From positions 32,001 to 96,000 of the IMG/VR virus record IMGVR_UViG_3300028800_000062: 64,000 nucleotides of DNA; one strand, written 5' to 3'. Made by a program: the position numbers and the translations under genes. Position 1 is the stretch's first letter, and every line of letters begins with the position of its first letter. The stretch is from a virus. The notes below the pieces were generated by a model that was given only the letters and a program-made list of their open reading frames with translations, ran no database searches and was not told the DNA's origin. Of this stretch, positions 16,660-45,328 are shown one piece after another.

Positions 16660-16677
16660 CTATACTAGCAAAGGGTG
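16660..16677 (+). promoter_or_regulatory. CTATACTAGCAA promoter-like motif (copy 1)
   Basis: ctatactagcaaagggtg, 17/18 identical to 45311..45328; intergenic, directly before an in-frame GTG. Confidence 0.55.
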
Positions 16678-21001: not shown

Positions 21002-21007
21002 TTCCTA

Positions 21008-28300: not shown

Positions 28301-30336
28301 GAAACAACACCGGCTTTGGCCAGACGGTCTACTTCGAAGGCAGTCGGCAGTTGACCAGCTGGTCACGCAAGTACTATGACGAGCAGGTAGGCGCCGGCAT
28401 GGGCCCGGACGTAGGCCTGGACAGCACTGCAGAATACTCGGAGCCCTTCCGCAGGTTTATCCAACGGGACCTGAAAACCCTGCAGGCAAACGAGATTCGC
28501 AACCAGATGCCGCACTGGCTGCCGGGCGACGATTACATGACGGACTTCCGCACCGGGGATCCGTATACGAAGGTGGATAGCGGCGCTTCCCGCCTGCCAG
28601 GCCCAGGTTACGAGGCTCTGCATCCGGAACTGAAGGGTGTTCCCTTCGAACAGTATCCGGATCTCGAACGCTACAAGATTCTCTCCGATGTAGCACCCTG
28701 GAGCAAGGAGTGGTTCATCTACAACACCAAGTTGAATGCAGCCACCATGCAGGATCCGGAGAGGCGCATCGCCTATGAACAGGTCCGCGACCGCGCCCAG
28801 GCAATCAAGGATTCATCCGAAGAGTTCCAGCATCGGCGCTTCTCAGCTCCCGTCGAACGCCTGACAGGGGTGGTCAAGCGCGCCACGCCGGCGGGTATCG
28901 AGATGGAGGACGGCCGCCACGTCCAACTAAGCGCCTTGGGCATGCGCATGTCAGACCTCTCTTCCCTGGCCCTTGGCGAGAAGAATAACCTGACCCGGCA
29001 GCAGGCGGCCGCGGAAGCCGAGCAGAGACAACAGCGTCTCCTCGAACGACTGTCTGCACTGAATGGACAGAGCATTGAGATGGTGGTTCCTCAAGGCACC
29101 GGGGAACACACCCTGCGCAGCCGCGCGGTGGTCCTGGTAGACGGGCATAACCTGAACCGGGAACTGATCAAAGCCGGACTGGCTCGCGAGGATCCCAACC
29201 TGGCCGGCGCGGAATATCAGGAGATGAGCGGCCCGCTGGGAAAAACCCTGGGGCGACTGGGAGAGGCGGCCTCTTTTATGGGAGACCAGGCGGCCATCAA
29301 CCCGATGCGCTGGACCTGGGGTCATGAGCAGAACAAGTTCTGGGGTAGTCGCGAACCCCTTGAAAAGTATACTTACAACGAACTGTACGGCGCCCGCATG
29401 CAGCATTGGGAGACGCCTTTGAAGAGTTTCGCCAAGCCCTGGCTGAGGTCCCTGTCGCACAAGTTGACCAATAAGGTCGTGGCTCCCCAGCAAGTGCAGG
29501 AACGACGGGACTTTGATATGCTTACCGACGTCCTAGAATACCTGCGCGCCACTACCCGCGGATATACTAACAAGAAGAGCAGGACAGCTATCGGAGCTGA
29601 TGTACTGGCGGACCCCGCCTATCTCCGATCCACACTTTCCGGGCGGGATAAGTACTACTTTCCAGAGTTCCTGCGGGAGACCCGGGACGAGGAACGCAGT
29701 AAGATCCTCGAGGCCGTGCCGGAAGATTTCGCACGCATCCTGCAAGGACAGTGGGTCAAGCAGGATATCGAAGTAGCCCGCGCCGCACATCAGCCGGTGC
29801 CTGAGAAAGTGACCGAAGGCGGTCGCCTACTAACCATGGATGATCTGCAGGCCTATCAAAAGGCCGAGAAGAGTCACGAAACCAAGTTGGACTACGGAAA
29901 CTGGCTGCGTTCGCGCGAAATCGCCGGCTTCTTCTCCCGGAAGAACGTCCGGTTGCCGGAGGATCCGGATTCCCCCGTGTACGCCGAGAACATTGATTAC
30001 GAGGATGTCAAAGCCAAGATCATTCAGGAAGAAGGCCTAGACTACCACGATTTCAATATCTTCGACGACCGCGCGGCGACACTGTGGCGCAAACCTTACC
30101 TGGACGGCGCCGTACGGGAACTGACTGAGGGGAACAACAAATCCGTGGAAGACCTACGCCAGGCTGTGGAGAATATGATGCTGGCCGGCGGATCTAAGGA
30201 GTCGGAAGTGCGGATCACGTCCCTCAGTTCCCGCAAGCAGCGCCAGAACCTGAAAATACGAGTGGAAGAACAACCGGATGAAGACATCCTGCGGGATGTG
30301 CGTCGGAATCCGGAGGCTTACCTGAATCAGAACTAG
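25375..30336 (+). CDS. Giant tape-measure-position/ejected protein with N-terminal DEDDh 3'-5' exonuclease, membrane helices and degenerate SNase-like domain
   Basis: FFDVETGGL, GGWNVGYD, FHGAFFDT (ExoI/II/III); several hydrophobic Gly/Ala helices; VLVDGHNLNRELIKAGLA resembles the thermonuclease C-terminus. Confidence 0.7.
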   Translation: MHQFPSPDKIHFFDVETGGLPEHRAFNFSLPEFQKWSALKGDAYYKHPYATFHANSPLLQLYATGLPHFDPAKEDRLQHLTQGTAPHSSLIRLPDKPWTVENGDKVPLLISDWARDNGLVKASQSAQRSEEETLRLFFEDLEAKLALGEPVNLGGWNVGYDLSAIERATRRYASLEPYQGWLGRQISAGQVRVVEGFDVFGDTILKYAEHNAEFAKSNLRMFPSGKVASNLEELRKVPGWKLGNIIDAIGGSEAFHISAEAAKFHGAFFDTQITASAYTRLWEAQASVREIQPGEDFAAAFRQAFTEAGLHPASVSSEDWMSRIFQRSGWQREFQRASKEGARDAGLAFEAVRSPSKVLIGAAVLGGMAIATNLAFGKRKDRQTQITGLDDLGLAAEQRHALTPFGSGWQGLDDPSPVNLSTLAIAGGTYGAFRYYTRNYPRSAVKVFSAAERRFPRQTLNYFGFSQFASSFLPTKLDVEAAQLVNNGSLTALGEHFQRLLGADLNLAQLATEGLHFERTGKSAYMHLAGTDRSVRFLGYDPATQKSGSRWAGASARWKAPINEPDRYLPNVVAGDTWAARWKSSWKQHVLSQTPINPKYGVEAEGLRFQPVFAEQEGHLLANLHQKVGITALELAEQPQKLFARIGLGLKNNSWNSAGGLVGKLLLKRALPIAAGLGALDYADYLTGHRLSAGVLGIGPKANVARAELTDRVPGARRTTDWYQRHIPGSQWGPLALPLTGMVTGELVEMGYEALTGIKLAGKASKFGRKAGLLAMLPFIPGMLGSRKSARELRDIYSGEQPVPVRSGRWWWLNQTPWGGGRITGYRPHWYARMKSRPERVALYGSEKEYWRHHPVLHPLNWLKNPYQLEEATYQDRPYPITSPAFSNIPLIGPVLAATLGRLVKPPKRMHESEWNGDDYTLFSPRVEPRGPAGLAPAHPREEFGLSDVVNRQTEQAAEFTGLSGFLAKTVLNKARNNTGFGQTVYFEGSRQLTSWSRKYYDEQVGAGMGPDVGLDSTAEYSEPFRRFIQRDLKTLQANEIRNQMPHWLPGDDYMTDFRTGDPYTKVDSGASRLPGPGYEALHPELKGVPFEQYPDLERYKILSDVAPWSKEWFIYNTKLNAATMQDPERRIAYEQVRDRAQAIKDSSEEFQHRRFSAPVERLTGVVKRATPAGIEMEDGRHVQLSALGMRMSDLSSLALGEKNNLTRQQAAAEAEQRQQRLLERLSALNGQSIEMVVPQGTGEHTLRSRAVVLVDGHNLNRELIKAGLAREDPNLAGAEYQEMSGPLGKTLGRLGEAASFMGDQAAINPMRWTWGHEQNKFWGSREPLEKYTYNELYGARMQHWETPLKSFAKPWLRSLSHKLTNKVVAPQQVQERRDFDMLTDVLEYLRATTRGYTNKKSRTAIGADVLADPAYLRSTLSGRDKYYFPEFLRETRDEERSKILEAVPEDFARILQGQWVKQDIEVARAAHQPVPEKVTEGGRLLTMDDLQAYQKAEKSHETKLDYGNWLRSREIAGFFSRKNVRLPEDPDSPVYAENIDYEDVKAKIIQEEGLDYHDFNIFDDRAATLWRKPYLDGAVRELTEGNNKSVEDLRQAVENMMLAGGSKESEVRITSLSSRKQRQNLKIRVEEQPDEDILRDVRRNPEAYLNQN

Positions 30337-30353
30337 TCTTGGAGATTATTCCT

Positions 30354-33299
30354 ATGTATAAGACGTTTCTTTTGATGATCTTCACCACTATTTCGGTCTT
30401 TGCCCAGTGCCCGGCAGGCACGGTGAATGTAAAACTGCTGCCAGGCTTCTGGGCTTGCGTGCCTTCCGGATCTGTAGGGTCAAAGTCGACACCTCCTCCA
30501 GTAATACCTCCCGCGTCCATGACTTCCGCGGCTGATGCCGCCTACTTGTCCAAAGGCAACAACGCTGTCGTACGAACGGTGCAGTCTAAACTGTCGGATA
30601 TCTATAATCTTGCGGATTACGGTGGGGTCTGTGACGGAACGACGGACAACACTGCGGCTTTCTCCAATGCGATCGCGGCCGTGGTGGCAACCGGCGGTGG
30701 TCAACTGCAGCTTCCGTCCGGAACTTGTATGAGCGGAACGATCAACCTGCCGGAAGGTGTGGCATTTGCAATGGTAGGCCAGGGCGTGGACGCAACGACG
30801 ATCAAGTTGAAGAACGGCGTGAACGCAGACCTGATTACGCAGGCGGACTTCGGTGCTTTGACAGGGTCGGACACCGCGGTTGGATTATTCCGCGTGAAGT
30901 TGTCGGCAATGACGCTGGACGGTAACAAAACACACCAAGCCGGCACGTCCTGGGTACTGCGGACCTACGGGCACGGCAACTATTGGTCGGACCTGGTGAT
31001 CCAGAACGGATTGACCGGAGGTAGATATAGCGAGTGGGCTTTGGACGCGTCGTTCTCAGCGCCGGCTAACGATCTGGAAGACTCATACACCAACGTGAAG
31101 ACGATCTTCAATGGAGTCACGCAGGCACTCTCGACCGTAACACTCACGTTTAACGCCACTTATGGGAGTGGTTACACGCACTTCATCACGATCGGTGCGA
31201 ACACGTACTCATACATTCAGCAATTGAACGACACCTCGGCGACAATCGCCCAGGCGTTATTGAGCTTGATCACTGATCGGAACGCAACGGCTACGGCGAG
31301 TGGACAGACTGCGATTGTGCTGACGGCCGCGGCAAACAGTGGCGCAACGGTGAGCGTATCGGCTTCAGACGGTAATGCAGGTGGTAGTCTGATCGAGAGT
31401 CAGTCCGGGGACGGGTTTCTGTTTCGCGGACCGCATGACTCGGTGTTTCAGGACTTCATCAGTTACGGCAACACAGGATGGGGCCTGCACAACCAGACCA
31501 GCTCGACTTATAACGGCGGAGGTCTGCACTTCTCCCATCTCAATGTTTACATGAATACGCTGGGCGGCGCTTACAACGAAGACGGAATGGTGTGCAATGA
31601 TTGTGCGCTGACCACGGCGACAGGACTGGGGCACTTGATCGCGCAGTATTCCGGATCTACTACGATCACGGCGGGAACCTGGGCCGGGCCTGTCGGGTTT
31701 GAGTGCCGGAACGCGTCGGACAGTTTGCAGGGGATTGTGGTGAACACTACAGTGGATGGAATGTTCCTCAACGGCTGCGAATACTCGCGTATCGACGTGA
31801 CTACTTTTCAGACCAATAGCCCAATGTTCCGAGTGAAGTCGTCGGCAACTAATAACACCATCATAGTGAACGGAGAGAGCACCGCAAGCACTGTGTTGTT
31901 CGATCCGTCAGGGTTAAGTGCCTTTCCCGCTACCAACTGCGTGCAGGTCAACGTCCATGGTCCGGCCGGATCCATGGCGCACAAGTATTATCAGCCCTGC
32001 ATAGACTCAGCTCTCCAAATCGATAATACTAATCAGTTTGTAGGTGTCAATGTAACTCCCATTTATGCACTGGATGTCCAGCCGCCGCAGCCCTCGAGCA
32101 TCACGTACGGCTTTTCAACAACCTGCACCGGATGTGCGACCGGTTACACGCACTTCATTACCGTAGGTAGCAGCACTTACACCCATATACAAGCGGGTGG
32201 GGACACTTCGGCGGGAATTGCCGCGGCGCTGTGCGCCTCGATCACGACGGCGCCGGACACGAACGCCACCTGCACGGTCAATAACAACTTTGTGATTCTG
32301 ACGGCGGCGAACAATAATCGCACGTATGTGGCGCTGAATGCATCCGACCAGGATGGGGTGGCAAACCTGTTCGAGAACCTAAGTGGCTATTCAACACCGG
32401 TTCGTGTTTCCAACCCGGCCCAGAATGCGGCATTGCTACTGGAACAACAGGGATCCACAAACTATCTGATTTCCGCGCAGGCAAACCTGACTAGTCCGGC
32501 ACAACTGCAATTGCAAGGTCCATCGAGTTCCGCGTTGCAGACCTTTAACATCCTGGGCAAGAACATTGGGTTCTACAATCAGGATGCCTCTAACGCCTGG
32601 TTGTCGGTGATGATCCAGGGTGGTTTGAACCAGGGAACCAACCCGTATTTGACGGTGCAAAGCAAGGCAGGCGCGGTGCAGTTCCAGATTACGTCGACAG
32701 GAGCGCTGCTCGCTAACACAAACGTCACCAGCCCCCAGTTCTGTATTCAGTCTAGTTGTATTAGCGCGTGGACCGCCGCGCAGATCACTAATGCCTTGGA
32801 TTCTACCCAGACTTATGCTAACCCTGCCTGGTTAACAGGTGTGACCTTCGGCGGCACGGTCCTGGGTTCCACCGGCGGCACGATTTATAACAGCGCCGGC
32901 ACGGGGGATTCCTTACTGGTATTGAGAAGCAGTTCCAGTCAGGCCGCGGACGGAAAGGGAATTCTGCAGATCCAGAATAGCGCGGGAAGTAAGATCGCAC
33001 AGATCAATTATGACGGAGGGTACTGGGAAGGTGACGGGACTAATTACAAATTCGCTTTCCAGACTTCTACTCTTGGACTGTCGAGCGATGCGGTATTTGC
33101 ATTCAAGAACGCGAACAATGCCTTTTCCGGAGCCTATGATTTAGGCTTCGTCCGAGGCACCGTAGGTGTGCTCAAGATCACGAACGGATCCAGCGGATAC
33201 GGGGCGGTCGATGCTTCAGGGTATAGTGCCTCTGGAGTGGCCGGAGTAACGTCCACAACCTGCACGCAGTGGACAAACGGTCTGTGCACTCACAATTAA
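30354..33299 (+). CDS. Tailspike-like pectate-lyase-fold (beta-helix) protein with signal peptide
   Basis: MYKTFLLMIFTTISVFA-Q; RTVQSKLSDIYNLADYGGVCDGTTDNTAAFSNAI...GGGQLQLPSGT is the typical beta-helix entry motif; two inserted GYTHFITxG repeats. Confidence 0.75.
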   Translation: MYKTFLLMIFTTISVFAQCPAGTVNVKLLPGFWACVPSGSVGSKSTPPPVIPPASMTSAADAAYLSKGNNAVVRTVQSKLSDIYNLADYGGVCDGTTDNTAAFSNAIAAVVATGGGQLQLPSGTCMSGTINLPEGVAFAMVGQGVDATTIKLKNGVNADLITQADFGALTGSDTAVGLFRVKLSAMTLDGNKTHQAGTSWVLRTYGHGNYWSDLVIQNGLTGGRYSEWALDASFSAPANDLEDSYTNVKTIFNGVTQALSTVTLTFNATYGSGYTHFITIGANTYSYIQQLNDTSATIAQALLSLITDRNATATASGQTAIVLTAAANSGATVSVSASDGNAGGSLIESQSGDGFLFRGPHDSVFQDFISYGNTGWGLHNQTSSTYNGGGLHFSHLNVYMNTLGGAYNEDGMVCNDCALTTATGLGHLIAQYSGSTTITAGTWAGPVGFECRNASDSLQGIVVNTTVDGMFLNGCEYSRIDVTTFQTNSPMFRVKSSATNNTIIVNGESTASTVLFDPSGLSAFPATNCVQVNVHGPAGSMAHKYYQPCIDSALQIDNTNQFVGVNVTPIYALDVQPPQPSSITYGFSTTCTGCATGYTHFITVGSSTYTHIQAGGDTSAGIAAALCASITTAPDTNATCTVNNNFVILTAANNNRTYVALNASDQDGVANLFENLSGYSTPVRVSNPAQNAALLLEQQGSTNYLISAQANLTSPAQLQLQGPSSSALQTFNILGKNIGFYNQDASNAWLSVMIQGGLNQGTNPYLTVQSKAGAVQFQITSTGALLANTNVTSPQFCIQSSCISAWTAAQITNALDSTQTYANPAWLTGVTFGGTVLGSTGGTIYNSAGTGDSLLVLRSSSSQAADGKGILQIQNSAGSKIAQINYDGGYWEGDGTNYKFAFQTSTLGLSSDAVFAFKNANNAFSGAYDLGFVRGTVGVLKITNGSSGYGAVDASGYSASGVAGVTSTTCTQWTNGLCTHN

Positions 33300-33312
33300 G
33301 GAGTAGTCTTCA

Positions 33313-34722
33313 ATGAAGAACCTAGCCATACTGACCATGATCTTTGCAGGCGTCGCCTCCGCGCAATCTGCAGGCACCGCCTCCACGCAATGTCCTGCAG
33401 GCTCCAAACTGGTTGAGGTCCTGCGAGGCAGTTGGCAATGTACACCTCAGGCAAGCAGCGGAAAGAGCGCCAGCGCGCTTCCGGCAGCCCTTCCAACTTC
33501 TGTCATATTGGCTTCACGTACCAGCGCCACGGGATATGAACTCGCGGCCTGGGGAGATTCGTTGATTGCGGGCGGAGCTAATCAGACTGGATTGCAAGGA
33601 CCGCTGGCTACGCTACTGGGCCGGCCCGTCTATAACGGAGGCGTAGGGGGACAGACTTGTGCGCAGATCTCAGCCCGTATGCTGGCGGCAACAGACAAGA
33701 AGGGTCGCTTTGTTATTATATGGGCGGGCGTTAATGACTCCGGCAACAATTTCGCCACGGTGCCTGCTTGTATTGCCGGCATGGTTGCTTCCCTGGAGCA
33801 GCCTACCCGGTTCCTGGTAATCTCCCTGCTGCCGAACTCCGCCTGGGTCGGTACTTCCGCATTCACAGCCATGCAGGCCACAAATGCGGCTTTGAAGGCA
33901 GCCTATCCAAACAACTATTACGACGCGCTCGGGTACTTGCTCACGCAAGGCACCGGGACCGGACAGGACCAAATCGATGCGGCGGGTGGAATGACTCCGA
34001 CTTCGCTTCGCGCCGATGCCATCCATCCAACTACCGCGACCAATGTTCTATTGGCAAACCAGGTCGCCGCTTGGATTATAGCGCAGGATACACTGCAACT
34101 AGGCGCCGTACCGGTGTCCTCGATCAGCGACATCTTTGCCTCTCCGCCGGCACTGGGCGGAAATGTTCCACAGTCCGCCACACATACTCGCATGAACGTA
34201 CTCTCAGGTGGAACCTGGGACTACGGCACAGACCCCGCTACCGGCGGTACCGGGACCGGAATCGCGATCGGAACCAACATCGTCCCGGCGTATCACACAC
34301 TCACACTGGCGAGCAATTTGCTGGCTATGGGTGCCGGCGGCTTTACTCCGACAGACCCTATCGATATCCGGTCTTTCGGCGTGATCTCGATCGGTCAATC
34401 GAGCGGGTATGCCAACGTACTCAGCGCAGGACCCGGCAACACCATCCTAAAAGGCGCGGCCATCTACTTACAGGCTCCGGCCGGGACCAATATGCTTGGC
34501 ATCGGAACCGTCCGAGTATGCGTTGGACAGTCCTCGTGCTCAGTATCAGGCACAGGTCAGTTTGCCAACAAGGGAAACACGATTCGCTTTGCTGATGCGG
34601 CGCGCACGCCGGCCAGCAGTTCGGAAGCCTGCAATGCCGGCGAAGCATTCTTCGACGCCACATATTTGTACGTGTGCACGGCTACGAACACGATCAAACG
34701 CCTGACATTGACTGCTTTCTAA
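33313..34722 (+). CDS. SGNH/GDSL esterase with signal peptide and fibre-type C-terminal module
   Basis: Blocks WGDSL, NGGVGG, WAGVND, DAIHP; C-terminus PASSSEACNAGEAFFDATYLYVCTATNTIKR. Confidence 0.8.
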   Translation: MKNLAILTMIFAGVASAQSAGTASTQCPAGSKLVEVLRGSWQCTPQASSGKSASALPAALPTSVILASRTSATGYELAAWGDSLIAGGANQTGLQGPLATLLGRPVYNGGVGGQTCAQISARMLAATDKKGRFVIIWAGVNDSGNNFATVPACIAGMVASLEQPTRFLVISLLPNSAWVGTSAFTAMQATNAALKAAYPNNYYDALGYLLTQGTGTGQDQIDAAGGMTPTSLRADAIHPTTATNVLLANQVAAWIIAQDTLQLGAVPVSSISDIFASPPALGGNVPQSATHTRMNVLSGGTWDYGTDPATGGTGTGIAIGTNIVPAYHTLTLASNLLAMGAGGFTPTDPIDIRSFGVISIGQSSGYANVLSAGPGNTILKGAAIYLQAPAGTNMLGIGTVRVCVGQSSCSVSGTGQFANKGNTIRFADAARTPASSSEACNAGEAFFDATYLYVCTATNTIKRLTLTAF

Positions 34723-34728
34723 AGTGTA

Positions 34729-37700
34729 ATGAATCCTCTATCTCAAGCCTTTCGAGCACTCGGACCGCGGGCAGCGACTGCGGCGGGTGCTCTAGCTGTG
34801 GCAGCTCCCTGGTTCCTCAAGAATGACGACCGGGGCTACCTGCAGACGGCGGCCTTCACCACTCCCCTGATCGCCGCCGGTTTCACGGCTCTTCCCGGGG
34901 CCATGTCCGGTGTCTGGAATATGTCTACAGAGATCGGACAACTCTGGAGCAACCGCGCCTTCCTGGGACAGGATTATCCGCAACTTCTGAAGGGCTATCG
35001 CCGGCAGGGAACTAGTGTGCGGCGGTCCATGCATAAATATGTGCAGGCTCAGGGACAAGACTGGTACGCATCCATCCGACCTACCCAGGAAGACTGGTCC
35101 GGCCAGGCATTCGATCTTCTCGGCAAATACCGCAACCAGGCGAAAGAACTGCGGCAGTCAGTGCACGGCCGCGGCGCCGGCGTCAGCGCGCGGGAGTTTC
35201 GGCCGCAGATCGAGCAGGATCTCAAGCATCGCATTCTATTGTCGCGGACTGTAGAAGAGGCCCGCATGGCGGGACTGACTCCGGAGAAGGCCGCGGAAAG
35301 AAGCCACCTGTTACAACCCAAACTGCGGTCCTGGGACCAGATTGAGCAAGTAGTCAAGGAGCACAGTGGGAACCAGGACTTCCTGCGGACTTTCGCCCGG
35401 CGCGCGCAGCGACTCGACGACTTGAACCTGGGCAAGCGGGTCTCCGGGGCGCAACTGCTAAAAACCAGTACCTACGAACGCCAGAACCTAGGTTTTGCAA
35501 TCATGCAGGCGCGCCAGGCCGAGAACGGCCATTTGCTGAAACGTCTGCAACTGGCGGAAGAAGCCATTCACAACAAGTGGATCCAGAAGGCGGATGTCAT
35601 TTATCAGGGCGAACAAGCGATAGGCCTGGAGCTGTTCAACCACCGGGGAAGATCTTTCAATTTGCCTCTGATTGGGAGTCAGGACAAGGTCGTCTCGATG
35701 GGGCCGGGGTGGAATCACCGAGGAACGTTTGCGCAGCTGTGGGATGAGAAGGGTATCCGTCTACCCGATATATCCGTGCTTGAAAACCTCAGCGATTGGA
35801 AGGACGCCAAACAGGCGGCCGTTTCCAGTTTCCAGTGGGGAGGTATCACCGATCGCACCGATACTGTCGATGCCGCCCTGCACGAGGACTTGAAAGGTAG
35901 CGTATCTCCTAAGTGGGCCCTGGCAGAGCGCAGCCTACGCGCCAATCCGGATCCGTTCGGAACGCACGCCGGTGGCAAGCGCTGGAAAGACCTGACAGAC
36001 GCCGAGAAGCACGCGGCGGAGATGTCCGCCATGGAGAAATACGATCTGACCAAGGTGGGCGGCGAGGGCGGCATCGCTTTCGGCAAGCTTGAGTCCCGCC
36101 TGGCGGAAGGCAATTCCATCGGTTTAGTGCCCTCGCCCACTCATCAGGATCCCGGTTACCGGTCATTCTCCAAGGACTTTTATATCGACCCGGAGAGTAT
36201 CAAAGACCTGGATAAGCCGCACCTCAGCTCGACGTTCTTCAAAGAGCAGCTGGGTGTCGAAGCTGGTGAAATGCCGGAGTTTTCCGCCCGATTCGGCGAG
36301 ATCACGCCGCAGGTCAAGTCCATGTACGGGGACATTCCGGCGGAGGCCGAGCGTGCGGCGCAGGAGGCCGTCAAAGAAGACCGCAGGTTCCTGTTGCAGG
36401 CCAAACGCGCGCATATCGATCACTTGCAAGACCTGGTGGAGAAGGGCAAGGGCGTAATCCGGCATCCCCAGGCGAGCAAAGATGTGATCGGAGATATCCA
36501 GCGGGACATCGAGCATTACAATCATCAGATCCGTTCTCTGAAGTCCAAGAAGTTGTCCCAACTGGAGATGCGCCAGCAGTTCGGAGCCACTCGGGAGTAC
36601 CTGGAGTTCCAGGGTGAACTGCAGAATAAGTTGCGTACAGCATTGGGTCCAGAGTATGAGACTCATCTGACAGGCTCCCTGCTCAAGCACATTCAGCGAG
36701 GAGCGGAAGCCACGGAAGCTGAGCGGGTTCTCGCAGGCCAGGTATCCCAACGCGTCCTGCGTGAATTGGTTGCAGATCCGCTGAATATCATTGCCGCCCG
36801 CGGTTACCAGACGCTAGGTGAAACGATCTTCAATACCGGCGATCGGCTGAGCGGCGTGAAGGGCATGCTAGACCGTAAGTTGAGTCTGTCAGAACTGTGG
36901 CAGGAGAAGGGCGCCGCCTTGCAACAGGGGGATGTCATTGGATTTGATGAGCATGGCAAACCCATCGCGGCGCGTACCGAGAGTGTGGTGCAGGACGTGG
37001 TTGGCAACGATGTTATCCTGCGCGAGCGCTTCGGCATTGCAGGCGCTAAGGGTGAAGGTCCTGGGGCTAAGGGTCTGTTCCACTCCGCCATTTATAACAA
37101 AGAGGACCTGCTCCCCAGACAGGTCCGGTTGAACAACCTGGTAACCGAGTTAACAGGTGTAGGTGGAGTTATTCCGGAACAGGTAGAAGGCCTGGCACTG
37201 GCTGAGTACTCCGCGTTCAAGACCAAGAATCCGATGGCCGATCTGCTCGAAGTCTCCGTGGATATTGCGGAACAACTGGTCAAAGGAAAGCATCTCAAAT
37301 CCGAACAGTTCCTGCAGGATTTGCAGAACAATCACTTCATCTATCGTAACGGCCGGTACGAGGAACAGTTTGCGGACGTATACCAGATGAGCCGGCAGGA
37401 TGCGGCACAGCGTTATTACGACCTGAGCAAGAAGGCGGAACATTATCTTGACGACGTGGGCAATGAGTCCGGTCACTTCGTGCTGGACGCCTTCCAACGC
37501 ACCACGGCTGCACAGCAACGGGCCGGACGCCAGACCGATTCACTTTCTCAATGGGTCTTTAAGAACTACCGGCAAGGCGCGGTTCGACTGTGGGATCACA
37601 CCCGCTTGAACCGCCCGGCACAAACCGGAGTCACCTATGACATGCTCTACGAAATGCAGCGCGCCGGGCATACCGAGGGAATGCGTGACATCTTCGAGAA

Positions 37701-39906
37701 CATCAGGTATCCGCAGGGCGATCCGGCTATGGCGCGCGAAGTCCAGAATTATCTGGCCGCCGGCGACTATGTGAACAAGCCCATAGGCGCAGCCTTGCAG
37801 CTCGATGAGATCGAGAATCTGGACTACCGCCTGTCGACGATAGAATCCCGCATGGGCAAAAGCGTCTTCAACCCGGAGTTTGCGCCCAATAACCTGTCGA
37901 TAGACCTGGGTGGCGTGCTGAAGGAAGTCAAACTGGGCGGCGAATCCGTCAATCTTCGTTACCTGCCGAAACTGGGGATGGACGCCTACAAAGGCGGCGC
38001 CAACGCTTATGGTTCCGGAGAGTGGGCGGCCAGTGAGCTCGAGCACGGTATGCATGACGCTTTGTCGGCTGCCGCCGGCATCGACTGGGCCAATCCGGAA
38101 TCGCATCAGATGAACAACCTGCGCACTAAAGTCTCCGAATACATGGAGAAGCTTTCTACTGAGTTAGGAGGAAAGGACGGTGTGCTGCGCGCGGATATGA
38201 CGCATCGCGCTGGAATCTACGGCGTAGCGGCGGAGCGTTCCAGCAGCGTAGGGGGCACGGCGCCATTCGAGATGAGCATTCCGAAGAGTATGGCCGAGGG
38301 CATCGAAGACCAGGCCCTGCGCACGGACGTTCTGAGCGGTAACGGGTACGCGGCTCTATTCCGCGATCCCAACTCCGCGGCTATGTATATGCGCGTGCGG
38401 GTAGATCCCACGGCCCATCTTGATCCGAACGAGTTCGGCATTCACTCCAGGGTGCGATCCGCCTTCCAGATGGACCATGACAAGGATTGGATGAAAGCAC
38501 TGTTTGTAACCAAGCAGGGCGCCCTTGAAGAAGCCCGGAAGGCAATTACAGATCAAGCCAGTCCTCAGTGGCAGAACCTGTTGGCCGCTGAGATGTTTCA
38601 AGGTACCGAGAATCCGCAGAATATCACCGGCCGGGCCTTTGCCGCCGAGGCGGAAGAGAAGGGTTGGAGCGGAGCCGGCAACTATCTGGACAACCTGCGC
38701 AAGGGATTATCGGATAGTGTGGAGGCCTCCAGGGCCCAGAGTTTCCGGGCGCGCTTATTCCACGGGTACACCGGTCATTTCTCGAACATGACGACCCGGC
38801 TGCAACTGATGTTGGCGAACAGCCCGGACTTGCTACCCGGGGACCGGGATTATTCAGCCTTCTCTTCCCTGTTATTCGATGTCAGGCAAACAGCTATTTC
38901 CGCTGGCAAGGGGAAGATGGGTGTGGGCGCGGAGCCTCTCGCAGTGCTGGCGAATCTGAATAAGTCGATCAATCAGGGCGAGGCAGGGTTGGATCTGTTT
39001 CAGCAGTCCATGAGTATGGTTGCTCGCGGCACGGGATTCACCGGTATCTACGACCAGGCCGCCGCGGATGTTACAGGTGTGGGTCTGGAAGAGGCCCGCA
39101 ACATTCTGGGAAACGAGAGTTTGCAGTTTGGGGATGAGGCCAATAACCTACTGCTATGGACCAAGGGCGGGCACGGCCGGGAAAGCATGCGGAAGCTGCT
39201 GGCGAGTCCCAATAACCTGAAGGCCAAACGCCTGACATCGTACCTGACCAGGGGTGAAATCAGCGTAGATGATGCGCTGGAGATGTCCCAGATACGGGAC
39301 ATGTCCCCGGAGATGATTGGCGGCATTCTGAAACAGCGTTCCTCTTCCGGAGTCCTGCATAGCATGGCGGAATCCGTTGCCGGAGAATCGGGCGGCCGGA
39401 TGTCCGATCGGGTCTCCCGCACGCTGGGCATGCTCAATGAAGGTGCCCGGGAAGGCTGGTCTTCCGCAGGCAAGACTCTGAAGCCGGCGGGCAAAGTGTT
39501 GGCCGCTGGGTTGGGATTAGCGGCGATCGCAGGCGTCATGACCGCGACCGCATCCAGCAACAAATACCGGCCGGAAGAAGAAATAGGAGTGAACGACCAG
39601 ATCCCCGGTGAGCCGGTTGCAGGATCTCGGGCGAGTGTCAATCCGAAACGCACGGAACAACCTGCGCGACCCTCCCCGCGGACCATCGTGGCGGCCAATA
39701 TGCGGCATGCGGTTGACCTTGAGATCCGTGCGAAGACTCCGGACCACGCCTCCTCCGTGGAAATGGCCAAGAATATCCAGCGGTTTACCGATACCGGCGG
39801 CGTTTCGAATGTGACCGTACAGCACTCCGGCGGCTGGCAGAAGAGCGCCAGCAAGTTACGCATGCAGGAACGGATTCGGGAAGAGTTAGATAAGCACCAA
39901 AGTTAG
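34729..39906 (+). CDS. Giant virion protein, candidate single-chain two-barrel RNA polymerase
   Basis: GAKGEGPGAKGL (aa 772-783, beta-like lysine pair); LFRDP (R1212) followed 37 aa later by QMDHDKD (D1249/D1251/D1253, beta'-like); hydrophobic helices at both ends. Confidence 0.6.
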   Translation: MNPLSQAFRALGPRAATAAGALAVAAPWFLKNDDRGYLQTAAFTTPLIAAGFTALPGAMSGVWNMSTEIGQLWSNRAFLGQDYPQLLKGYRRQGTSVRRSMHKYVQAQGQDWYASIRPTQEDWSGQAFDLLGKYRNQAKELRQSVHGRGAGVSAREFRPQIEQDLKHRILLSRTVEEARMAGLTPEKAAERSHLLQPKLRSWDQIEQVVKEHSGNQDFLRTFARRAQRLDDLNLGKRVSGAQLLKTSTYERQNLGFAIMQARQAENGHLLKRLQLAEEAIHNKWIQKADVIYQGEQAIGLELFNHRGRSFNLPLIGSQDKVVSMGPGWNHRGTFAQLWDEKGIRLPDISVLENLSDWKDAKQAAVSSFQWGGITDRTDTVDAALHEDLKGSVSPKWALAERSLRANPDPFGTHAGGKRWKDLTDAEKHAAEMSAMEKYDLTKVGGEGGIAFGKLESRLAEGNSIGLVPSPTHQDPGYRSFSKDFYIDPESIKDLDKPHLSSTFFKEQLGVEAGEMPEFSARFGEITPQVKSMYGDIPAEAERAAQEAVKEDRRFLLQAKRAHIDHLQDLVEKGKGVIRHPQASKDVIGDIQRDIEHYNHQIRSLKSKKLSQLEMRQQFGATREYLEFQGELQNKLRTALGPEYETHLTGSLLKHIQRGAEATEAERVLAGQVSQRVLRELVADPLNIIAARGYQTLGETIFNTGDRLSGVKGMLDRKLSLSELWQEKGAALQQGDVIGFDEHGKPIAARTESVVQDVVGNDVILRERFGIAGAKGEGPGAKGLFHSAIYNKEDLLPRQVRLNNLVTELTGVGGVIPEQVEGLALAEYSAFKTKNPMADLLEVSVDIAEQLVKGKHLKSEQFLQDLQNNHFIYRNGRYEEQFADVYQMSRQDAAQRYYDLSKKAEHYLDDVGNESGHFVLDAFQRTTAAQQRAGRQTDSLSQWVFKNYRQGAVRLWDHTRLNRPAQTGVTYDMLYEMQRAGHTEGMRDIFENIRYPQGDPAMAREVQNYLAAGDYVNKPIGAALQLDEIENLDYRLSTIESRMGKSVFNPEFAPNNLSIDLGGVLKEVKLGGESVNLRYLPKLGMDAYKGGANAYGSGEWAASELEHGMHDALSAAAGIDWANPESHQMNNLRTKVSEYMEKLSTELGGKDGVLRADMTHRAGIYGVAAERSSSVGGTAPFEMSIPKSMAEGIEDQALRTDVLSGNGYAALFRDPNSAAMYMRVRVDPTAHLDPNEFGIHSRVRSAFQMDHDKDWMKALFVTKQGALEEARKAITDQASPQWQNLLAAEMFQGTENPQNITGRAFAAEAEEKGWSGAGNYLDNLRKGLSDSVEASRAQSFRARLFHGYTGHFSNMTTRLQLMLANSPDLLPGDRDYSAFSSLLFDVRQTAISAGKGKMGVGAEPLAVLANLNKSINQGEAGLDLFQQSMSMVARGTGFTGIYDQAAADVTGVGLEEARNILGNESLQFGDEANNLLLWTKGGHGRESMRKLLASPNNLKAKRLTSYLTRGEISVDDALEMSQIRDMSPEMIGGILKQRSSSGVLHSMAESVAGESGGRMSDRVSRTLGMLNEGAREGWSSAGKTLKPAGKVLAAGLGLAAIAGVMTATASSNKYRPEEEIGVNDQIPGEPVAGSRASVNPKRTEQPARPSPRTIVAANMRHAVDLEIRAKTPDHASSVEMAKNIQRFTDTGGVSNVTVQHSGGWQKSASKLRMQERIREELDKHQS

Positions 39907-39919: not shown

Positions 39920-42900
39920 ATGAGCCTTTTACTGAGTGACACGCCCGGAGAAAACGACGGCGGCTATTTCCGCATTGGCGATGTGATCTTAAGGATTCCA
40001 CCGGAGTCCATATCCACCAACAAGGTCACGGATAACGAAGAGGTGTCTACCTTACGTGCCAAGTACCCCATGTACGTCAAAGATGGTCATTCGCGCTGGG
40101 ATGTGACTGTGACCTGGAAGGCTTTGGTCACTAACGACGGAGGCACTCCGGATTACACTCAGTGGGTTTCGCTGCAGCGGATTCTGGCCATGTTCAAAGC
40201 CGCACCGTTTGTGCAGGTGGAGAGCGGGCACCTTCGGCAACTGGTGATGGCGGATCCTGAATTAGACCGGGCCGACCGGACTGCCCGCATGGCTTTCGCG
40301 TTGCGCCAGCTTCGAGTGGACACTCTCCCTGATATTCCACAGGGTCTACAGTGCACCCTGACTATGAGCTGGTTCAATTACCTGCCCTATTCGACGGATT
40401 TCGGATATTTAGACCCCAATGGCCAGCCGGAAGACGCCACCCAATACACCCAGTTCACCGACTATATCGATACCTGGTTGAGCGAGAACCTGCAGGGGCC
40501 TCCGGATCCATTTGACGGCCGGCCGGATCTCTCGAAGAAGTTCGGCTATCCGGACCTATCATTGTGGAACCAGCAAACCCCCGGTACAGTAAAGTTGCAT
40601 TGGCGCCAGTATTGTGTGGTTCCTATCGACGACCAGACCGCACCATCAGCTTCAGCTCCAGCGGCGCCTTCTCAGCCAACCGGTATTCCCAGCTCCAAAC
40701 TGTCTTCCGGACCTGCTGATATTCGTGCGAAGATCACCCAGGCGGCACAAGCCCAGGGAGTGGATCCGGCGTTGGCCCTCGCTGTTGCCTACCACGAGAG
40801 CCGCTTCAATCCCACCGCCAAGAATCCGAACAGCAGCGCTTATGGGGTATTTCAAATCATTCCCCGCTGGCATCCGGAGATCAATCAGTATCCCAACAAA
40901 GGCGTGCAGGACGTCGACTCCAACATTCAGGTGGGAGTTGGGTATTTGAAACAGTGCCTCAACCACTACAACGGAAACCAGAAAGAAGCCTTGTGGGCCT
41001 ACAACCAGGGAGAGGGCGCTGTAGATAACTTCCTGCGCGGTAAGACCTCCGCTTTACCCAATGGGACCGTTCAGTATGCGGACGCCGTCCTGCAGATGGC
41101 CTACCAGGGAACTCCCCAAGTAAAGAGCACGCCGGTGGCGGATGCATCGCCGCTGAAGTCTGCGGCACCTGTACAGGCGGCCGCGCCCAGCACGGATACT
41201 TGGCCGGAGCCGGTAGAAACCAAGGTTAACAACCTGATTGCTAAGGGCTGGTGGGCAGATCACAACACGGAGCGGGCCGTATTCCTGTACAAACCGCATC
41301 AGATCGAGTTTCAGGATGAGGAACACGGCGGCGGTCCCAACCTGGATTGCTGTTACCCGGTACAGATATCCGTGGTATTCGTCAACAAGATTGCCGTGCA
41401 GCCGCTGCGCGGTTATCAGTATCCGGTGATGCAACACCTGGGCCCGGCCGGGACTATGATTTCGGTAGGATTTCTCTCCAACGCCCTGCCGGCGGGCGAT
41501 TCCGAACCGGTACACTCCGGGCCGGCTAAGATGGCAGGCATGTGCTCTGCACTCGAAGATCAGTTCCATAGGCTGCAGGGGGAGTGGCGCTCGATTTATG
41601 CTATCCACCGCATGCAGGCTGTGATCGTCGAGAACCAGGTTCTGAACGCGCTGGGTATCTACGGCACCCTGGTCAACAACTTCAATAGTGAGACGCTGCC
41701 AGAGTCGGCTTCCCTGGCGCAGGCGGCCCTGAGCCTGGTGCAGTACGAGAATGTATTCGAGGAGATCGGATCTTATAGGGTCAACGGGCTAACAGGGGCC
41801 AGTGCAGCCGTGTTGAACCAGATCATGACCGACGGCACCTTGGCCACGGCCAGCAAGGGTCCCGGGGGCGATGCTTATAAACCGCTGACGCAGTATCAGT
41901 CCGATAAGCAATCGCAAAATCCCGCGCCGGTGATGCAGATGATGCAGGACAGCCGCTATCAGACACCGGTAGTTCCCATGCCGGTAAAGCTGACTGCCGA
42001 TCAGCAGCAGACGCTGGTTCAGGCCATTGCTTCGAACAAAACTCAGGCGTCCGCGAGCACCGCGGCAGACTCCACCCTGGTTGCCCAGAACATGGCAGGC
42101 GTGCCTACTTTCAACGCTTCAGGCACCAGTCTGACAGGCGGAGGGATTACGCAGGTGGATCCGGAGCTGGCCTCCCGCATTCAGTCCGGGTCTTTCTCAT
42201 ATAACGATTACTTCCAGTTTGTCCATTCGCCGGGGCTCTCCGGCAATGCGTCGATCCAGTCCCTCAATCAGAGCGTCAATCAGGTCATTGCCAACCAGGT
42301 GCCCGCCGACCAGGCGCCCATGACCAAGCTATACCAGTCGGTATTCGACTATCAGAGTAAGTACAACGCTGCCTTTGTGGCGGCCGTAGGTCAGATGCAG
42401 TTCGATCCAACAACTGCCAGTAAATTCACCAACGCGGTAAATCCCAACGGACCCGGAAGTGACGATGCGAATAAGAACCACGGATCCTACCGGGACCTGG
42501 GGCTGAAGACCCTGTCGCTGGGGAACGGACTGGACTTCAATCCAGGATACTATTTCACCAATAACGAGAAGAAGCAACGTCAGGCCTTGCGCGATCAGTT
42601 GACATACGCCGTGTCGGCTTCCAATGCTGCGCTGAGTTATTTCAACAAGGCGACCTCCAATGCCTCCTCGGCGCCGGCTGACAATTCGATACAAAACAGC
42701 GATTCGCAGAATCCCGCCGCGATGAACGTCAATACGGAGATGATTCTGGAGCGCACGGTGACCCCTTTCAAGTCCATGAAGCGGGCCTTTCCGACCTTCA
42801 AGCTGTTTCTGGTGGAAGAAGACAACACCGGACCTTTCTTCATGTTCGACAACTTCTACTGCTACTCCTCAGTGCTGAACATGGAAATCATCCGTTACCA

Positions 42901-45307
42901 GGACAAGCCGGATATGGCCGTGATTCAACTGACCAACCTGGCGAATCTACTATCGCACAAAGTGTTCGATTCGAGTGCGTCCGGCAAGCAGGAATACAAT
43001 TTGTCTAATCTGCAGGATGTACCTGGAAGCAGTGTAGGAGGGCCGGTAACCGGAGGCATGGGCGGCGCGGTGCAGGCGCGTAAGACGCCCGCCGGAGTGG
43101 TGCTTGAACAGGAAAAGATCCTGAATCTGTCCAAAGGCTATAATGCACAGGTGAAGGACGTCCCGCTGCAGTACTACCCCCTGCAGACTGGGGCCAAGAT
43201 CCAGATCCGCATGGGTTACACCAACAACCCGGATTTGCTCTATCCAGTATTCACTGGAAAAGTAACTCAGATCGAAGGCGAAGACATCCTGACCATCACC
43301 GCCCAGAGCTTCATGCTGGAGTTGATGGATAAGGATCACAATGAGCTGCGCAGCGACGGGTACTTTAATCTGAGCACGGTTTCCGAGACCATCCGCAACT
43401 GGGGCGTGCCTACGAAAGGGGCGGCCTACGGGGGTTGGACTTTCCTGCGGGATTCCGGAACTGCAGGGTGTGTCATGTCAGACGTGCTGAAGTGCAGCGG
43501 AGCCCGGCACTTTGGACACTGGCAGGTAAACCCGGTGCAGAAGAATACGCCGTTCATGCGCGGTTTCGGCTGGATTGAGTTGACGGCCGCGGCCGCCGGC
43601 GCCCTGGGCGCTTCCAAGATCCAGTCCGTAACGCAAGCCTTGCAGGACCGGAGAGATGAGAATATCCTCATTAACCAGCTGATCAGTACGGACGGCACCG
43701 TAGCCCAGCAGCGCATCAAGCGCGCCGATCAGTTTGAGAAGCCGGCGGAGATCTTCGCCTCGGTCTATGGGATTCCAGACGATCCTGAGATCACTCCCTG
43801 GACGATCCTGAGAGACATTTCCCGCCGATACCCGGAGTATCGTCTGCTGGAGCGGCCCTACGGGTTCCCCTACGGTTGCGACGGAACCCTGGTCTTTGCG
43901 CATCCGAACGACCTGTATATCACGCGTCCCAAGATGGCCAACAGCGCTGAAGCTACGGCCATGAACATCACCAATAACGGCAAGTTTGAAGATTGGTTCA
44001 CACCCGTGCAGCGCGCCAAGATAGTAGCCCTGCCCGGCATGAGCGACCTGGCCGCCGATGCCGCCCGTTATATTCTGATGAATGTCACCAACCCGTCCGG
44101 CAGTAAAGCCCCGGCCACGTCCAACCGGTATACGTCGGCGGAGCGTCTCGGGGAACAGACTGCCAGTTGGATCGATCAGGGAGGGTTGACCACTTTCAAT
44201 GCTATTTTGAACGGATATGCCGACTATGCCGCACAGAAGACGGCATTGTCTAAAGTGGTCCAGATCTTCGAGTTCGGCCTCGGCGACCTGCAGGGGCATG
44301 CTAATGACCTGCGCATGACGGTGAGAGCCATTCAGAACGACGCGATCAGCCACATCAACCTGCCGGCGGATCGGCAGAACAGCACAGCCTCGGACCCGTC
44401 TTCGCCCGCCTACCTGCAACCTGTGCGCAAATGGCACGTGATCAGCACCGACAATATCATCCACAACGGCATCACCATCAACGAGCAGATCTTCAACGCG
44501 GTGCGCATCAACAAGGACATTATCAAGGCCAATATTAACATTCCGGACTACTACACCCGGGTGCTCGACTGCAATAAGCTGATCATCGAGCCGGACCGTA
44601 ACCTGGGGGTTGCGGGAGGTCCCGGAACGCTCGAACGGGCCTACGCTCAGAGTTTCCTGCGCGAAGAGGTCGGTAAGATGTACCGGGGAGAGCTGGTAAT
44701 CACCGGCGTGCCGGAAATGGATCCGGGCGACGGGATTATGCTGTTGGATTCCACCACAGGTACCGCGGGCCCACTTGAGATCGAAAGCGTGATCCATTCC
44801 TTCGATCAAGAAATGGGGTATATCACGGTGGTCCGGCCGCGGGCCATGGTGGTGACTAATGAAGCCACCACGCTTGGCATTATTGCGGCCTTCAACAATC
44901 TGAACTTGTTTCAAGAGCTGGGCGCATTGGGACGGGACCTCTCTTCAACACCTCAGGCTGCTGCAGCCACTGCGGTAGGCGCCACAGCCGCTGTAACCAC
45001 AGCTGGTCTGGCGGTCTCCACAGCTGTGGCTGCGGGTGTATCGTTGACCGGCGTGGGATTGGCGGTGGTGGTCGGCATGTTGTTGACCTACGTCGTGTTG
45101 GCCGACATGAAGCAGGAATCTCTGCCGCTCATCGTGGCGCCGCTAAACCGTTATGGACGTCCCTGGGTGGGAGGCCTGAATGGATGGGCTCTCACGGATC
45201 TGCACACCTACGTGGAGAAGCGTTTCCAACAGTTCTGGAACTTCGAGATCGCGCCCACTTTGCAGGGATTCAAGAACCTCAAAGGCATCGTCGACAGCTA
45301 CACCTAG
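39920..45307 (+). CDS. Baseplate hub/tail-associated lysin with SLT lytic transglycosylase domain
   Basis: GVDPALALAVAYHESRFNP..A..SSAYGVFQI...NIQVGVGYL...ALWAYNQG; hub-like segments IQIRMGY...VFTGKV and MYRGELVITGVPEMDPGD...IESVIHSF; C-terminal hydrophobic helices. Confidence 0.8.
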   Translation: MSLLLSDTPGENDGGYFRIGDVILRIPPESISTNKVTDNEEVSTLRAKYPMYVKDGHSRWDVTVTWKALVTNDGGTPDYTQWVSLQRILAMFKAAPFVQVESGHLRQLVMADPELDRADRTARMAFALRQLRVDTLPDIPQGLQCTLTMSWFNYLPYSTDFGYLDPNGQPEDATQYTQFTDYIDTWLSENLQGPPDPFDGRPDLSKKFGYPDLSLWNQQTPGTVKLHWRQYCVVPIDDQTAPSASAPAAPSQPTGIPSSKLSSGPADIRAKITQAAQAQGVDPALALAVAYHESRFNPTAKNPNSSAYGVFQIIPRWHPEINQYPNKGVQDVDSNIQVGVGYLKQCLNHYNGNQKEALWAYNQGEGAVDNFLRGKTSALPNGTVQYADAVLQMAYQGTPQVKSTPVADASPLKSAAPVQAAAPSTDTWPEPVETKVNNLIAKGWWADHNTERAVFLYKPHQIEFQDEEHGGGPNLDCCYPVQISVVFVNKIAVQPLRGYQYPVMQHLGPAGTMISVGFLSNALPAGDSEPVHSGPAKMAGMCSALEDQFHRLQGEWRSIYAIHRMQAVIVENQVLNALGIYGTLVNNFNSETLPESASLAQAALSLVQYENVFEEIGSYRVNGLTGASAAVLNQIMTDGTLATASKGPGGDAYKPLTQYQSDKQSQNPAPVMQMMQDSRYQTPVVPMPVKLTADQQQTLVQAIASNKTQASASTAADSTLVAQNMAGVPTFNASGTSLTGGGITQVDPELASRIQSGSFSYNDYFQFVHSPGLSGNASIQSLNQSVNQVIANQVPADQAPMTKLYQSVFDYQSKYNAAFVAAVGQMQFDPTTASKFTNAVNPNGPGSDDANKNHGSYRDLGLKTLSLGNGLDFNPGYYFTNNEKKQRQALRDQLTYAVSASNAALSYFNKATSNASSAPADNSIQNSDSQNPAAMNVNTEMILERTVTPFKSMKRAFPTFKLFLVEEDNTGPFFMFDNFYCYSSVLNMEIIRYQDKPDMAVIQLTNLANLLSHKVFDSSASGKQEYNLSNLQDVPGSSVGGPVTGGMGGAVQARKTPAGVVLEQEKILNLSKGYNAQVKDVPLQYYPLQTGAKIQIRMGYTNNPDLLYPVFTGKVTQIEGEDILTITAQSFMLELMDKDHNELRSDGYFNLSTVSETIRNWGVPTKGAAYGGWTFLRDSGTAGCVMSDVLKCSGARHFGHWQVNPVQKNTPFMRGFGWIELTAAAAGALGASKIQSVTQALQDRRDENILINQLISTDGTVAQQRIKRADQFEKPAEIFASVYGIPDDPEITPWTILRDISRRYPEYRLLERPYGFPYGCDGTLVFAHPNDLYITRPKMANSAEATAMNITNNGKFEDWFTPVQRAKIVALPGMSDLAADAARYILMNVTNPSGSKAPATSNRYTSAERLGEQTASWIDQGGLTTFNAILNGYADYAAQKTALSKVVQIFEFGLGDLQGHANDLRMTVRAIQNDAISHINLPADRQNSTASDPSSPAYLQPVRKWHVISTDNIIHNGITINEQIFNAVRINKDIIKANINIPDYYTRVLDCNKLIIEPDRNLGVAGGPGTLERAYAQSFLREEVGKMYRGELVITGVPEMDPGDGIMLLDSTTGTAGPLEIESVIHSFDQEMGYITVVRPRAMVVTNEATTLGIIAAFNNLNLFQELGALGRDLSSTPQAAAATAVGATAAVTTAGLAVSTAVAAGVSLTGVGLAVVVGMLLTYVVLADMKQESLPLIVAPLNRYGRPWVGGLNGWALTDLHTYVEKRFQQFWNFEIAPTLQGFKNLKGIVDSYT

Positions 45308-45310
45308 TAG

Positions 45311-45328
45311 CTATACTAGCAATGGGTG
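45311..45328 (+). promoter_or_regulatory. CTATACTAGCAA promoter-like motif (copy 2)
   Basis: ctatactagcaatgggtg in the 22-nt gap before GTG 45330. Confidence 0.55.

Follow-up and report, generated by a model that had tools for sequence, protein, structure and literature searches.

Why should a phage with a contractile tail encode what looks like an RNA polymerase (RNAP) at the place where its tape measure is expected? The question is raised by a gene at 34729-39906 (+ strand) of the 64,000-nucleotide (nt) stretch analysed here (the window), which comprises bases 32001-96000 of the linear 146.7-kb IMG/VR virus record IMGVR_UViG_3300028800_000062, for which CheckV estimates a completeness of ~68%. 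The gene lies within the tail module, and an initial annotation had read its product as a divergent single-chain two-barrel RNAP that is packaged in the particle and ejected to transcribe early genes. The explanation that accounts best for the results described below, and which we hold to be probable rather than certain, is that the gene encodes a predicted catalytically competent, single-chain RNAP of the fused β/β' two-barrel type, that this enzyme, a member of an unannotated family, takes the tape-measure slot in a contractile tail of the 0305phi8-36 type, and that it would be packaged, injected and used for early transcription.

The reading frame is open over the whole of 34729-39906 and encodes 1725 amino acids (aa; P0001), and all the motifs that had been quoted for it are found at the coordinates given. 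The string GAKGEGPGAKG contains the lysine pair, K774 (nt 37048-37050) and K781 (nt 37069-37071); the string YAALFRDP contains R1212, which starts at nt 38362 and is part of the signature R1212-x-P1214 (38362-38370); and QMDHDKDW (nt 38467-38490) contains the aspartate loop D1249-H-D1251-K-D1253 (38473-38487). R1212 lies 37 residues upstream of D1249, in agreement with the [RK]-x-P element 20-100 residues before the Asp loop that was applied as a filter in PMC10770324. Taken alone this signature is weak, as the regular expression [RK]xP-x(20-100)-DxDxD matches one further protein of the genome by chance. Fold and conservation of the 1725-aa protein nevertheless speak against a chance occurrence of the motif inside a structural protein.

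The conservation can be read from a family that is large but without annotation. A HMMER search of 1.84 billion cluster representatives recovered 61 relatives, mostly of 1500-1700 aa, which amounts to a family of about 60 metagenomic clusters at 50% identity; a word-index search added a further relative, P0002, which is 68% identical and encoded on a 204-kb contig, and a scan of IMG/VR with the 1725-aa protein added one at 71%, while the same scan with the subgroup alignment A3 returned no relative. An alignment of 45 full-length homologues (20-35% identity, mean column identity 22%) has no more than 13 invariant columns; R1212, P1214, D1249, D1251 and D1253 account for five of them. The lysines K774 and K781 are each conserved in 44 of the 45 homologues, so that the Asp, Lys and Arg residues singled out by the initial annotation are indeed those that the family retains; K1149 and E698 are kept in 43-44 (E698 in 43), and G697, G1148 and R1154 in every homologue. 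Around the lysine pair the consensus of the family is G-x-K-x-D-x-x-G-x-K-G-L, and towards the Asp loop it is R-[HQ]-P-x-S...A-D-x-D-x-D. G697-E698 resembles the β 'E-D' site, and G1148-K1149...R1154 the β' 'GKR...R' strand. Invariance of the whole nucleotide-addition set favours real RNA synthesis. At the fourth position of the Asp loop the residue varies: it is K in 19 homologues, G in 11 and L in 7, with others in the rest, and lysine is thus the norm of the family. The replacement of glycine by lysine at this position, which had been put forward as unusual, was accordingly overstated, the more so as it is also found in the non-virion RNAP of AR9, whose Asp loop is DDDKD (supplement of PMC10770324).

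The fold leads to the same class of enzyme. AlphaFold2 models aa 641-1460, from 62 aligned sequences, with a mean predicted local distance difference test (pLDDT) of 91.6 and a predicted template-modelling score (pTM) of 0.88. Foldseek finds 412 matches to this model in the PDB at E<=0.001, and the 50 matches listed are all of the largest-subunit β'/Rpb1 type (bacterial β', Pol II Rpb1, the AR9 non-virion β'-like protein). A VIA-align search, which is independent of Foldseek, returns both multisubunit enzymes (Pol I A190, Z 11.7; Pol II Rpb1, Z 11.3; vaccinia, Z 10.9; archaeal A', Z 10.6; the non-virion β' pieces of AR9 and phiKZ, Z 9.4 and 9.1) and single-chain ones, namely QDE-1 (Z 11.1, root-mean-square deviation (rmsd) 4.0 Å, 281 aa, model 56-775), P74-26 gp62 (Z 9.2), maize RDR2 (Z 8.0) and P23-45 gp96 (Z 7.1-7.4, 253-269 aa, model 53-790). 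In this search the single-chain two-barrel enzymes align over both barrels, in the same order as in the model. The closest clusters of the ESM Atlas carry PF00562 (Rpb2_6) and PF00623 (Rpb1_2) in one chain; one such fused cluster reaches a template-modelling score of 0.47 (486 aa, model 51-724), a viral one 0.46/0.54, with spans of 458-486 aa. The alignments over both barrels (QDE-1, gp62, gp96 and the fused Rpb2_6+Rpb1_2 clusters) all begin at model 51-56, and those of Rpb1 chains reach model 792-797. With RNA polymerases as its structural neighbours and PF00562 and PF00623 joined in the nearest clusters, the proposal of a fused β/β' enzyme is supported.

Within the model, the Asp loop is located between a helix and the next strand of the barrel at model 517-620, R1212 is at the end of a strand, and K774 and K781 are on a β-hairpin (model E133-136, E141-146). 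Double-psi β-barrels had been expected around both motifs; both do lie in confidently predicted β-barrels, and on the β' side, the one for which isolated domains were compared, isolated double-psi β-barrels match (model 521-620; Z 8.7, rmsd 2.2 Å, 86 aa). Next comes a 33-residue, bridge-helix-like helix (aa 1331-1363), with R1342, G1349, S1352 and N1353 conserved, which is followed by RQxPISAxK. Residues 711-769 (model 71-129) weakly resemble sandwich-barrel-hybrid domains (Z 6.3) and, if the resemblance is real, may form a cellular-type 'flap-like' insert in the β-like barrel. Three features of the two-barrel RNAP superfamily, a β'-type barrel with D-x-D-x-D, the R-x-P element and a second barrel with two basic residues, are present, and membership in the T7-like single-subunit RNAPs is rejected, as the fold class differs.

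By sequence, the protein could be placed in none of the established families of the superfamily (PF00562/PF00623, PF05183 and gp96). It matches no Pfam family (E<=0.1) and no PHROGs family; phmmer against PDB sequences gives nothing significant, and the best RNAP match of the family profile against the same sequences, at E 1.4, is not significant either. PF00562 and PF00623 have no match across the whole record, nor has PF00940, a negative that carries no information because the control matched nowhere, and in 50,697 phage records no match was found by tblastn of the 1725-aa protein, by tblastn of P0036 or by megablast of 12 kb. The structural match to QDE-1 comes without a PF05183 signal and is due to the core common to the superfamily.

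Position, divergence and a hydrophobic helix agree with a tape measure, but about half of the 1725-aa protein is globular polymerase core in the model. The parts of the protein are:

34729..35433 (+), aa 1-235: N-terminal Ala/Gly-rich hydrophobic motif NDxRGYxxTAxxTTPxI, with R35 and P46 at least 90% conserved, then long helices
35476..36168 (+), aa 250-480: α/β domain, most 10-residue blocks at a pLDDT of ~90 or above, those at 371-390 lower
36307..36813 (+), aa 527-695: hairpins of long helices ahead of the polymerase core
36814..37203 (+), aa 696-825: β-like barrel region with G697, E698 and the lysine pair
37204..38196 (+), aa 826-1156: connector, β'/Rpb1 N-terminal-like from about aa 1010, with GKxGxLR (G1148, K1149, R1154)
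38197..38508 (+), aa 1157-1260: β'-like double-psi β-barrel with R1212-x-P1214 and DHDKD
38719..38910 (+), aa 1331-1394: bridge-helix-like helix, then RQxPISAxK, in which Q1387 and K1394 are invariant
39496..39552 (+), aa 1590-1608: transmembrane-type hydrophobic helix (Kyte-Doolittle 1.91), present in ~38 of the 45 homologues
39562..39903 (+), aa 1612-1725: C-terminal domain with RPEE..PGEP..NPPR..DLEV..SNVTVNY and 19 columns conserved to at least 80%

Long helices stand before and after the core in the models. The model of aa 1-700 (pLDDT 79.5) consists of long helices, a confident α/β domain and helical hairpins, and fold searches with it found generic helical hairpins only, at Z below 8. 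Membrane helices had been claimed for both termini; the C-terminal one is convincing, whereas the N-terminal segments are weak (Kyte-Doolittle 1.28) and were overstated. The last ~115 residues are the best-conserved non-catalytic part of the family, and a contact with the hub or the envelope is proposed for them (aa 1612-1725); a search with the C-terminal 151 aa alone, aimed at ordinary tape measures, returned family members only.

The surroundings of the gene show which place it takes in the tail module:

16660..16671 (+): CTATACTAGCAA motif, upstream of the sheath gene
17367-19268 (+): tail sheath
19388-22297 (+): three tandem tube-type paralogues
25375..30336 (+): upstream giant of 1653 aa, homologue of 0305phi8-36 gp145 and ME3 gp035, with one transmembrane-like helix and no Cys
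30339..34722 (+): two Cys-containing signal-peptide genes between the gp145-like gene and the polymerase gene, as the next two lines
30339-33299: fibre-like protein of 986 aa with a signal-peptide-like N-terminus
33313-34722: GDSL lipase-domain protein of 469 aa with tail-fibre PHROG matches and a signal-peptide-like N-terminus
39920..45307 (+): downstream giant of 1795 aa, with an SLT lytic transglycosylase domain at aa 272-373 and C-terminal transmembrane helices, homologue of the 0305phi8-36 gp147 hub and of ME3 gp037
45311..45322 (+): second exact copy of CTATACTAGCAA, 4 nt past the stop codon of the hub gene
61678-61689 (-): further copy of the CTATACTARCAA motif; copies with a single mismatch lie at 14732 and 29562

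The sheath and the tube paralogues, in the same + strand run of genes, confirm the myovirus-type tail setting, and the gaps from the polymerase gene to its neighbours are only 6 and 13 nt. The corresponding genes of 0305phi8-36 are arranged as chaperonins, gp145, gp146 (a 'hypothetical tape measure protein') and gp147 (database record; PMC2147016), and gp145 and gp146 are virion proteins by mass spectrometry (record notes). The upstream giant matches gp145 at E 3e-32 over several collinear segments and the downstream giant matches gp147, a hub of the T4 gp27 type, at E 1e-10; as both flanking giants are homologous to those that flank gp146, the polymerase occupies the gp146 slot, and the tape-measure-like position ascribed to it is borne out. 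No other long open reading frame fit to be the ruler is present in the tail module. All three giants have a transmembrane-like helix, and the first two have no Cys. The trio is conserved on three independent metagenome contigs, where the neighbours are 35-49% identical to those of this phage and the polymerase only 24-33%, so that the polymerase diverges faster. The insert ahead of the polymerase gene is variable: contig L002 has none, L001 and L003 have other small genes (on L003 a Trypsin_2 gene), and the contig of P0002 has several genes, a GDSL one among them, at the same place.

The CTATACTARCAA motif is over-represented, with 5 matches against 0.18 expected, and its + strand copies at 16660 and 45311 bracket the block from sheath to hub, the polymerase gene included. 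This arrangement is compatible with one late transcription unit, and the motif could serve as a late promoter specific to the phage, perhaps one that a phage polymerase reads; sigma-70-type promoters and terminators within 24-44 kb do not rise above chance.

A second polymerase candidate lies outside the window, in a 990-aa open reading frame at 10431-13403 of the genome (minus strand), which contains R-Q-P...A-D-W-D-D. Its language-model and structure look-alikes are phage clusters of the ESM Atlas with the PF05183 RNA-dependent RNA polymerase (RdRP) domain (scores 0.92-0.93); it has no Pfam match, no similarity to the 1725-aa protein and no match in the records of ME3 and 0305phi8-36, and in one 46-kb fragment that carries a polymerase relative, all that could be searched, it has no match. 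By analogy it may be a YonO/QDE-1-like non-virion polymerase comparable to orf99 of 0305phi8-36, a YonO-like enzyme (PMC2147016, PMC7824862), which is a lead and not proof. If this candidate holds, the phage would have the two-polymerase layout of P23-45, with gp96 as the virion enzyme and gp64 as the non-virion one.

Among cultured phages, a likely distant counterpart is gp036 of Acinetobacter phage ME3 (vB_AbaM_ME3; L006:13173-17984, +), a protein of 1603 aa in the same slot, with R-E-P...DHDQD. The BFVD model A0A172Q021_2, whose 802 aa fit half of gp036's 1603, matches the core model at E 5.8e-5, and in sequence three elements line up collinearly, though weakly and without significance: the Asp loop, the helix after it and the hydrophobic helix near the C-terminus. 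The family hidden Markov model has no significant match in the ME3 and 0305phi8-36 records or in their three giants, and hhalign gives a probability below 1% both for ME3 gp036 (0.3) and for gp146. A 'minor tail protein' from an uncultured siphovirus is another BFVD neighbour of the core. ME3 has a further protein (798 aa; BFVD A0A172Q0S6) that is RNAP-like by structure (E 9e-4); ME3 thus seemingly carries two RNAP-like proteins, both without annotation and one of them in the tape-measure slot. In the Microcystis phage MaMV-DC, ORF65 (ORF65L; L011:1225-6258, -) is an unannotated protein of 1677 aa that contains RTP...DADGD as well as a K...KG pair and whose gene lies outside the tail module; the polymerase core is matched by its BFVD model at E 2.7e-7 (TMq 0.34), and on these models it is probably an unrecognised single-chain two-barrel RNAP of a cultured cyanophage. 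The virus survey in PMC10770324 did not include ME3 or the Microcystis phages.

How do these proteins relate to polymerases already described? P23-45 gp96, with its counterparts in P74-26, G20c and TSP4, is a virion two-barrel RNAP fused to the tape measure (PMC10770324; PDB 8h2m, 8h2n). The 1725-aa protein shares with it a single-chain two-barrel polymerase encoded as, or in place of, the tape measure, a membrane segment in the same protein, a structural match over both barrels, and the presence of another candidate two-barrel RNAP at a separate locus of the genome. The two have no sequence similarity, as the family profile searched against PDB sequences, 8h2m and 8h2n included, gives no gp96 match at E<=10. 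The tail is contractile here, whereas that of P23-45 is described as long and non-contractile; the polymerase is central in 1725 aa here, but forms the N-terminal 1100 aa of 5002 in gp96; the motif is DHDKD instead of DFDGD; the metallopeptidase domain of gp96 is not found here by Pfam or PHROGs; a ~330-aa connector with a β' N-terminal-like part stands here, where gp96 is clamp-less; and the nearest structural clusters are cellular-type fused β/β' proteins, not gp96/gp64. It is the fused PF00562+PF00623 single-chain RNAPs of bacteria and phages that give the best overall shape match and share the order of a β-like followed by a β'-like part; unlike the 1725-aa protein, the fused Atlas clusters are detectable by Pfam, have 700-1000 aa, and come with no reported tail-module context, transmembrane helix or conserved C-terminal domain. 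The clade of QDE-1, YonO and phi14:2 gp66 likewise has both barrels in one chain, but there is no PF05183 signal here, and the sandwich-barrel-hybrid insert that may weakly be present here is described as absent from this YonO/RdRP clade (PMC7824862). The crAss-like phi14:2 gp66, which is not among the matches listed, forms part of a large protein and is delivered from the virion (PMC10770324). The phiKZ and AR9 RNAPs, also phage β/β'-like enzymes of large myoviruses, have D-x-D-K-D in common with this protein (in the AR9 non-virion enzyme), but are split into several polypeptides, detectable by Pfam and encoded outside the tail module. The slot itself, between gp145-like and gp147-like genes, is shared with gp146 of 0305phi8-36 and gp036 of ME3.

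In the literature searched, no polymerase was found described for the gp146 slot in the 0305phi8-36-type lineage: the YonO-like enzyme is the sole polymerase listed for 0305phi8-36 (PMC7824862), a 2026 jumbo-phage review makes no mention of one in this slot, and a tape-measure-fused polymerase is reported there only for P23-45 and its close relatives, which have long non-contractile tails (PMC10770324). A virion-type two-barrel RNAP tied to a tape measure is thus known in principle, and what is new here is the sequence family and the contractile-tail setting.

From the slot and conserved synteny of the gene and from the fold and conserved catalytic residues of its product, we infer an active polymerase that is packaged, ejected, held in the membrane and used for early genes. 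It would be made late, along with the tail genes, and assembled into the particle alongside the two giants encoded next to it, the gp145-like and the SLT/hub protein. Contraction of the sheath would expel it together with these neighbours; the SLT giant would cut the wall of the cell, and hydrophobic helices from all three giants would enter the membrane, leaving the core (aa ~696-1433) on the cytoplasmic side with the C-terminal helix as its tether at the inner membrane. There, it could transcribe the first genes of the entering DNA without the host polymerase, perhaps with that of the second, YonO/QDE-1-like candidate among them, and possibly aid the pulling-in of the DNA. The same model of ejection and transcription has been proposed for P23-45 gp96 (PMC10770324). 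A conserved transmembrane helix and C-terminal domain, which would be odd in a soluble polymerase, fit an ejected, envelope-anchored protein.

Several points weigh against this explanation. The only slot-mate shown in virions, gp146 of 0305phi8-36 (2537 aa), has no DxDxD, no transmembrane-like helix and no detectable similarity to the family, so that presence in the virion is transferred by position only. No tie to known RNAPs was found at the level of sequence, whether by Pfam, by PHROGs or by the profile searched against the PDB. The folded core, of ~90 kDa, is too big for the tail tube and would have to travel unfolded. Lastly, with the record only ~68% complete, the early region and its promoters are not definable.

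An active phage RNAP might also be encoded in the tail operon without being packaged, to serve in a late or middle role or to be made for the next round, and the location of MaMV-DC ORF65, a structural relative with RTP...DADGD, outside the tail module is in line with this. We nevertheless judge it unlikely, as on all related contigs examined the gene keeps its place with a structural giant on either side, as it is organised in a late-type manner together with sheath, tube and hub, as the product has a conserved transmembrane helix and C-terminal domain, and as a separate RdRP-like candidate already fits the non-virion role. The faster divergence (24-33% against 35-49% in the neighbours, as is seen in tape measures), the gp146 slot with no other tape-measure candidate in the module, the long helices that flank the core and the hydrophobic helices in all three giants could belong to a protein that is mainly a tape measure or ejection protein, with a core that acts as a motor or anchor gripping and pulling the DNA and not as an enzyme for early genes. 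This too has a low probability in our estimate, since the invariance of the complete nucleotide-addition set speaks for real RNA synthesis; moreover, RNA synthesis and DNA pulling are compatible. In T7, genome entry is driven by transcription.

The substrate could also be another one, if the enzyme were RNA-dependent like QDE-1, primase-like, or a DNA polymerase like PolD. QDE-1 (Z 11.1) and the plant RDR2 (Z 8.0) are indeed among the better matches over both barrels, and dual activities are described for QDE-1 (PMC9508822). The nearest neighbours and most of the others, however, are DNA-dependent β'/Rpb1 chains and fused Rpb2_6+Rpb1_2 clusters, PolD is not among the matches listed (which does not exclude PolD), and a phage with double-stranded DNA plainly needs a DNA-dependent enzyme, all of which makes a different template or product distinctly improbable. 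Least credible is a dead polymerase fossil that serves as a structural scaffold: the divergence from all known RNAPs is extreme, as a fossil would have it, but a scaffold would not keep exactly the R-x-P and D-x-D-x-D residues as five of 13 invariant columns, with the lysine pair in 44 of 45 homologues.

If the packaged early RNAP is the correct explanation, the idea known from P23-45 would recur in a separate, unannotated family of large 0305phi8-36-type phages with contractile tails, a family invisible to Pfam, PHROGs and BLAST, and would widen the known routes to independence from host transcription. It would also add a compact fused β/β' enzyme of ~800 residues to the polymerase family tree, and suggests that the 'hypothetical tape measure' and giant tail genes of other phages may hide polymerases. 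ME3 gp036 points to a cultured phage for the direct study of virion delivery, membrane tethering and transcription-coupled DNA entry. A wider extension, which is possible but doubtful, is that throughout the lineage, which would comprise this phage, the relatives known from metagenomes and probably also ME3, a membrane-anchored RNAP has taken over from the tape measure or has evolved out of it. Joined with the SLT/hub giant and the gp145-like giant, which may be an exonuclease, this RNAP would make up an ejection complex across the envelope that physically couples tail length, wall cutting, DNA entry and first transcription.

Two minor observations concern other proteins of the module. At the N-terminus of the 1653-aa gp145-like protein (25375-26334), which has no PDB or Pfam match, IHFFDVETGGLPE resembles the ExoI motif of DEDD 3'-5' exonucleases; its nearest named Atlas clusters are exonucleases of the RNase_T type (score 0.91, 151 shared features), the family being found in only 19-29% of their members, and an exonuclease activity of this giant is thus a lead only. 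The tube paralogues (19388-22297) match PHROG 9206, which bears the label 'major head protein'; as the 0305phi8-36 record names the members of this family tail tube and tube paralogue, the label is probably misleading.

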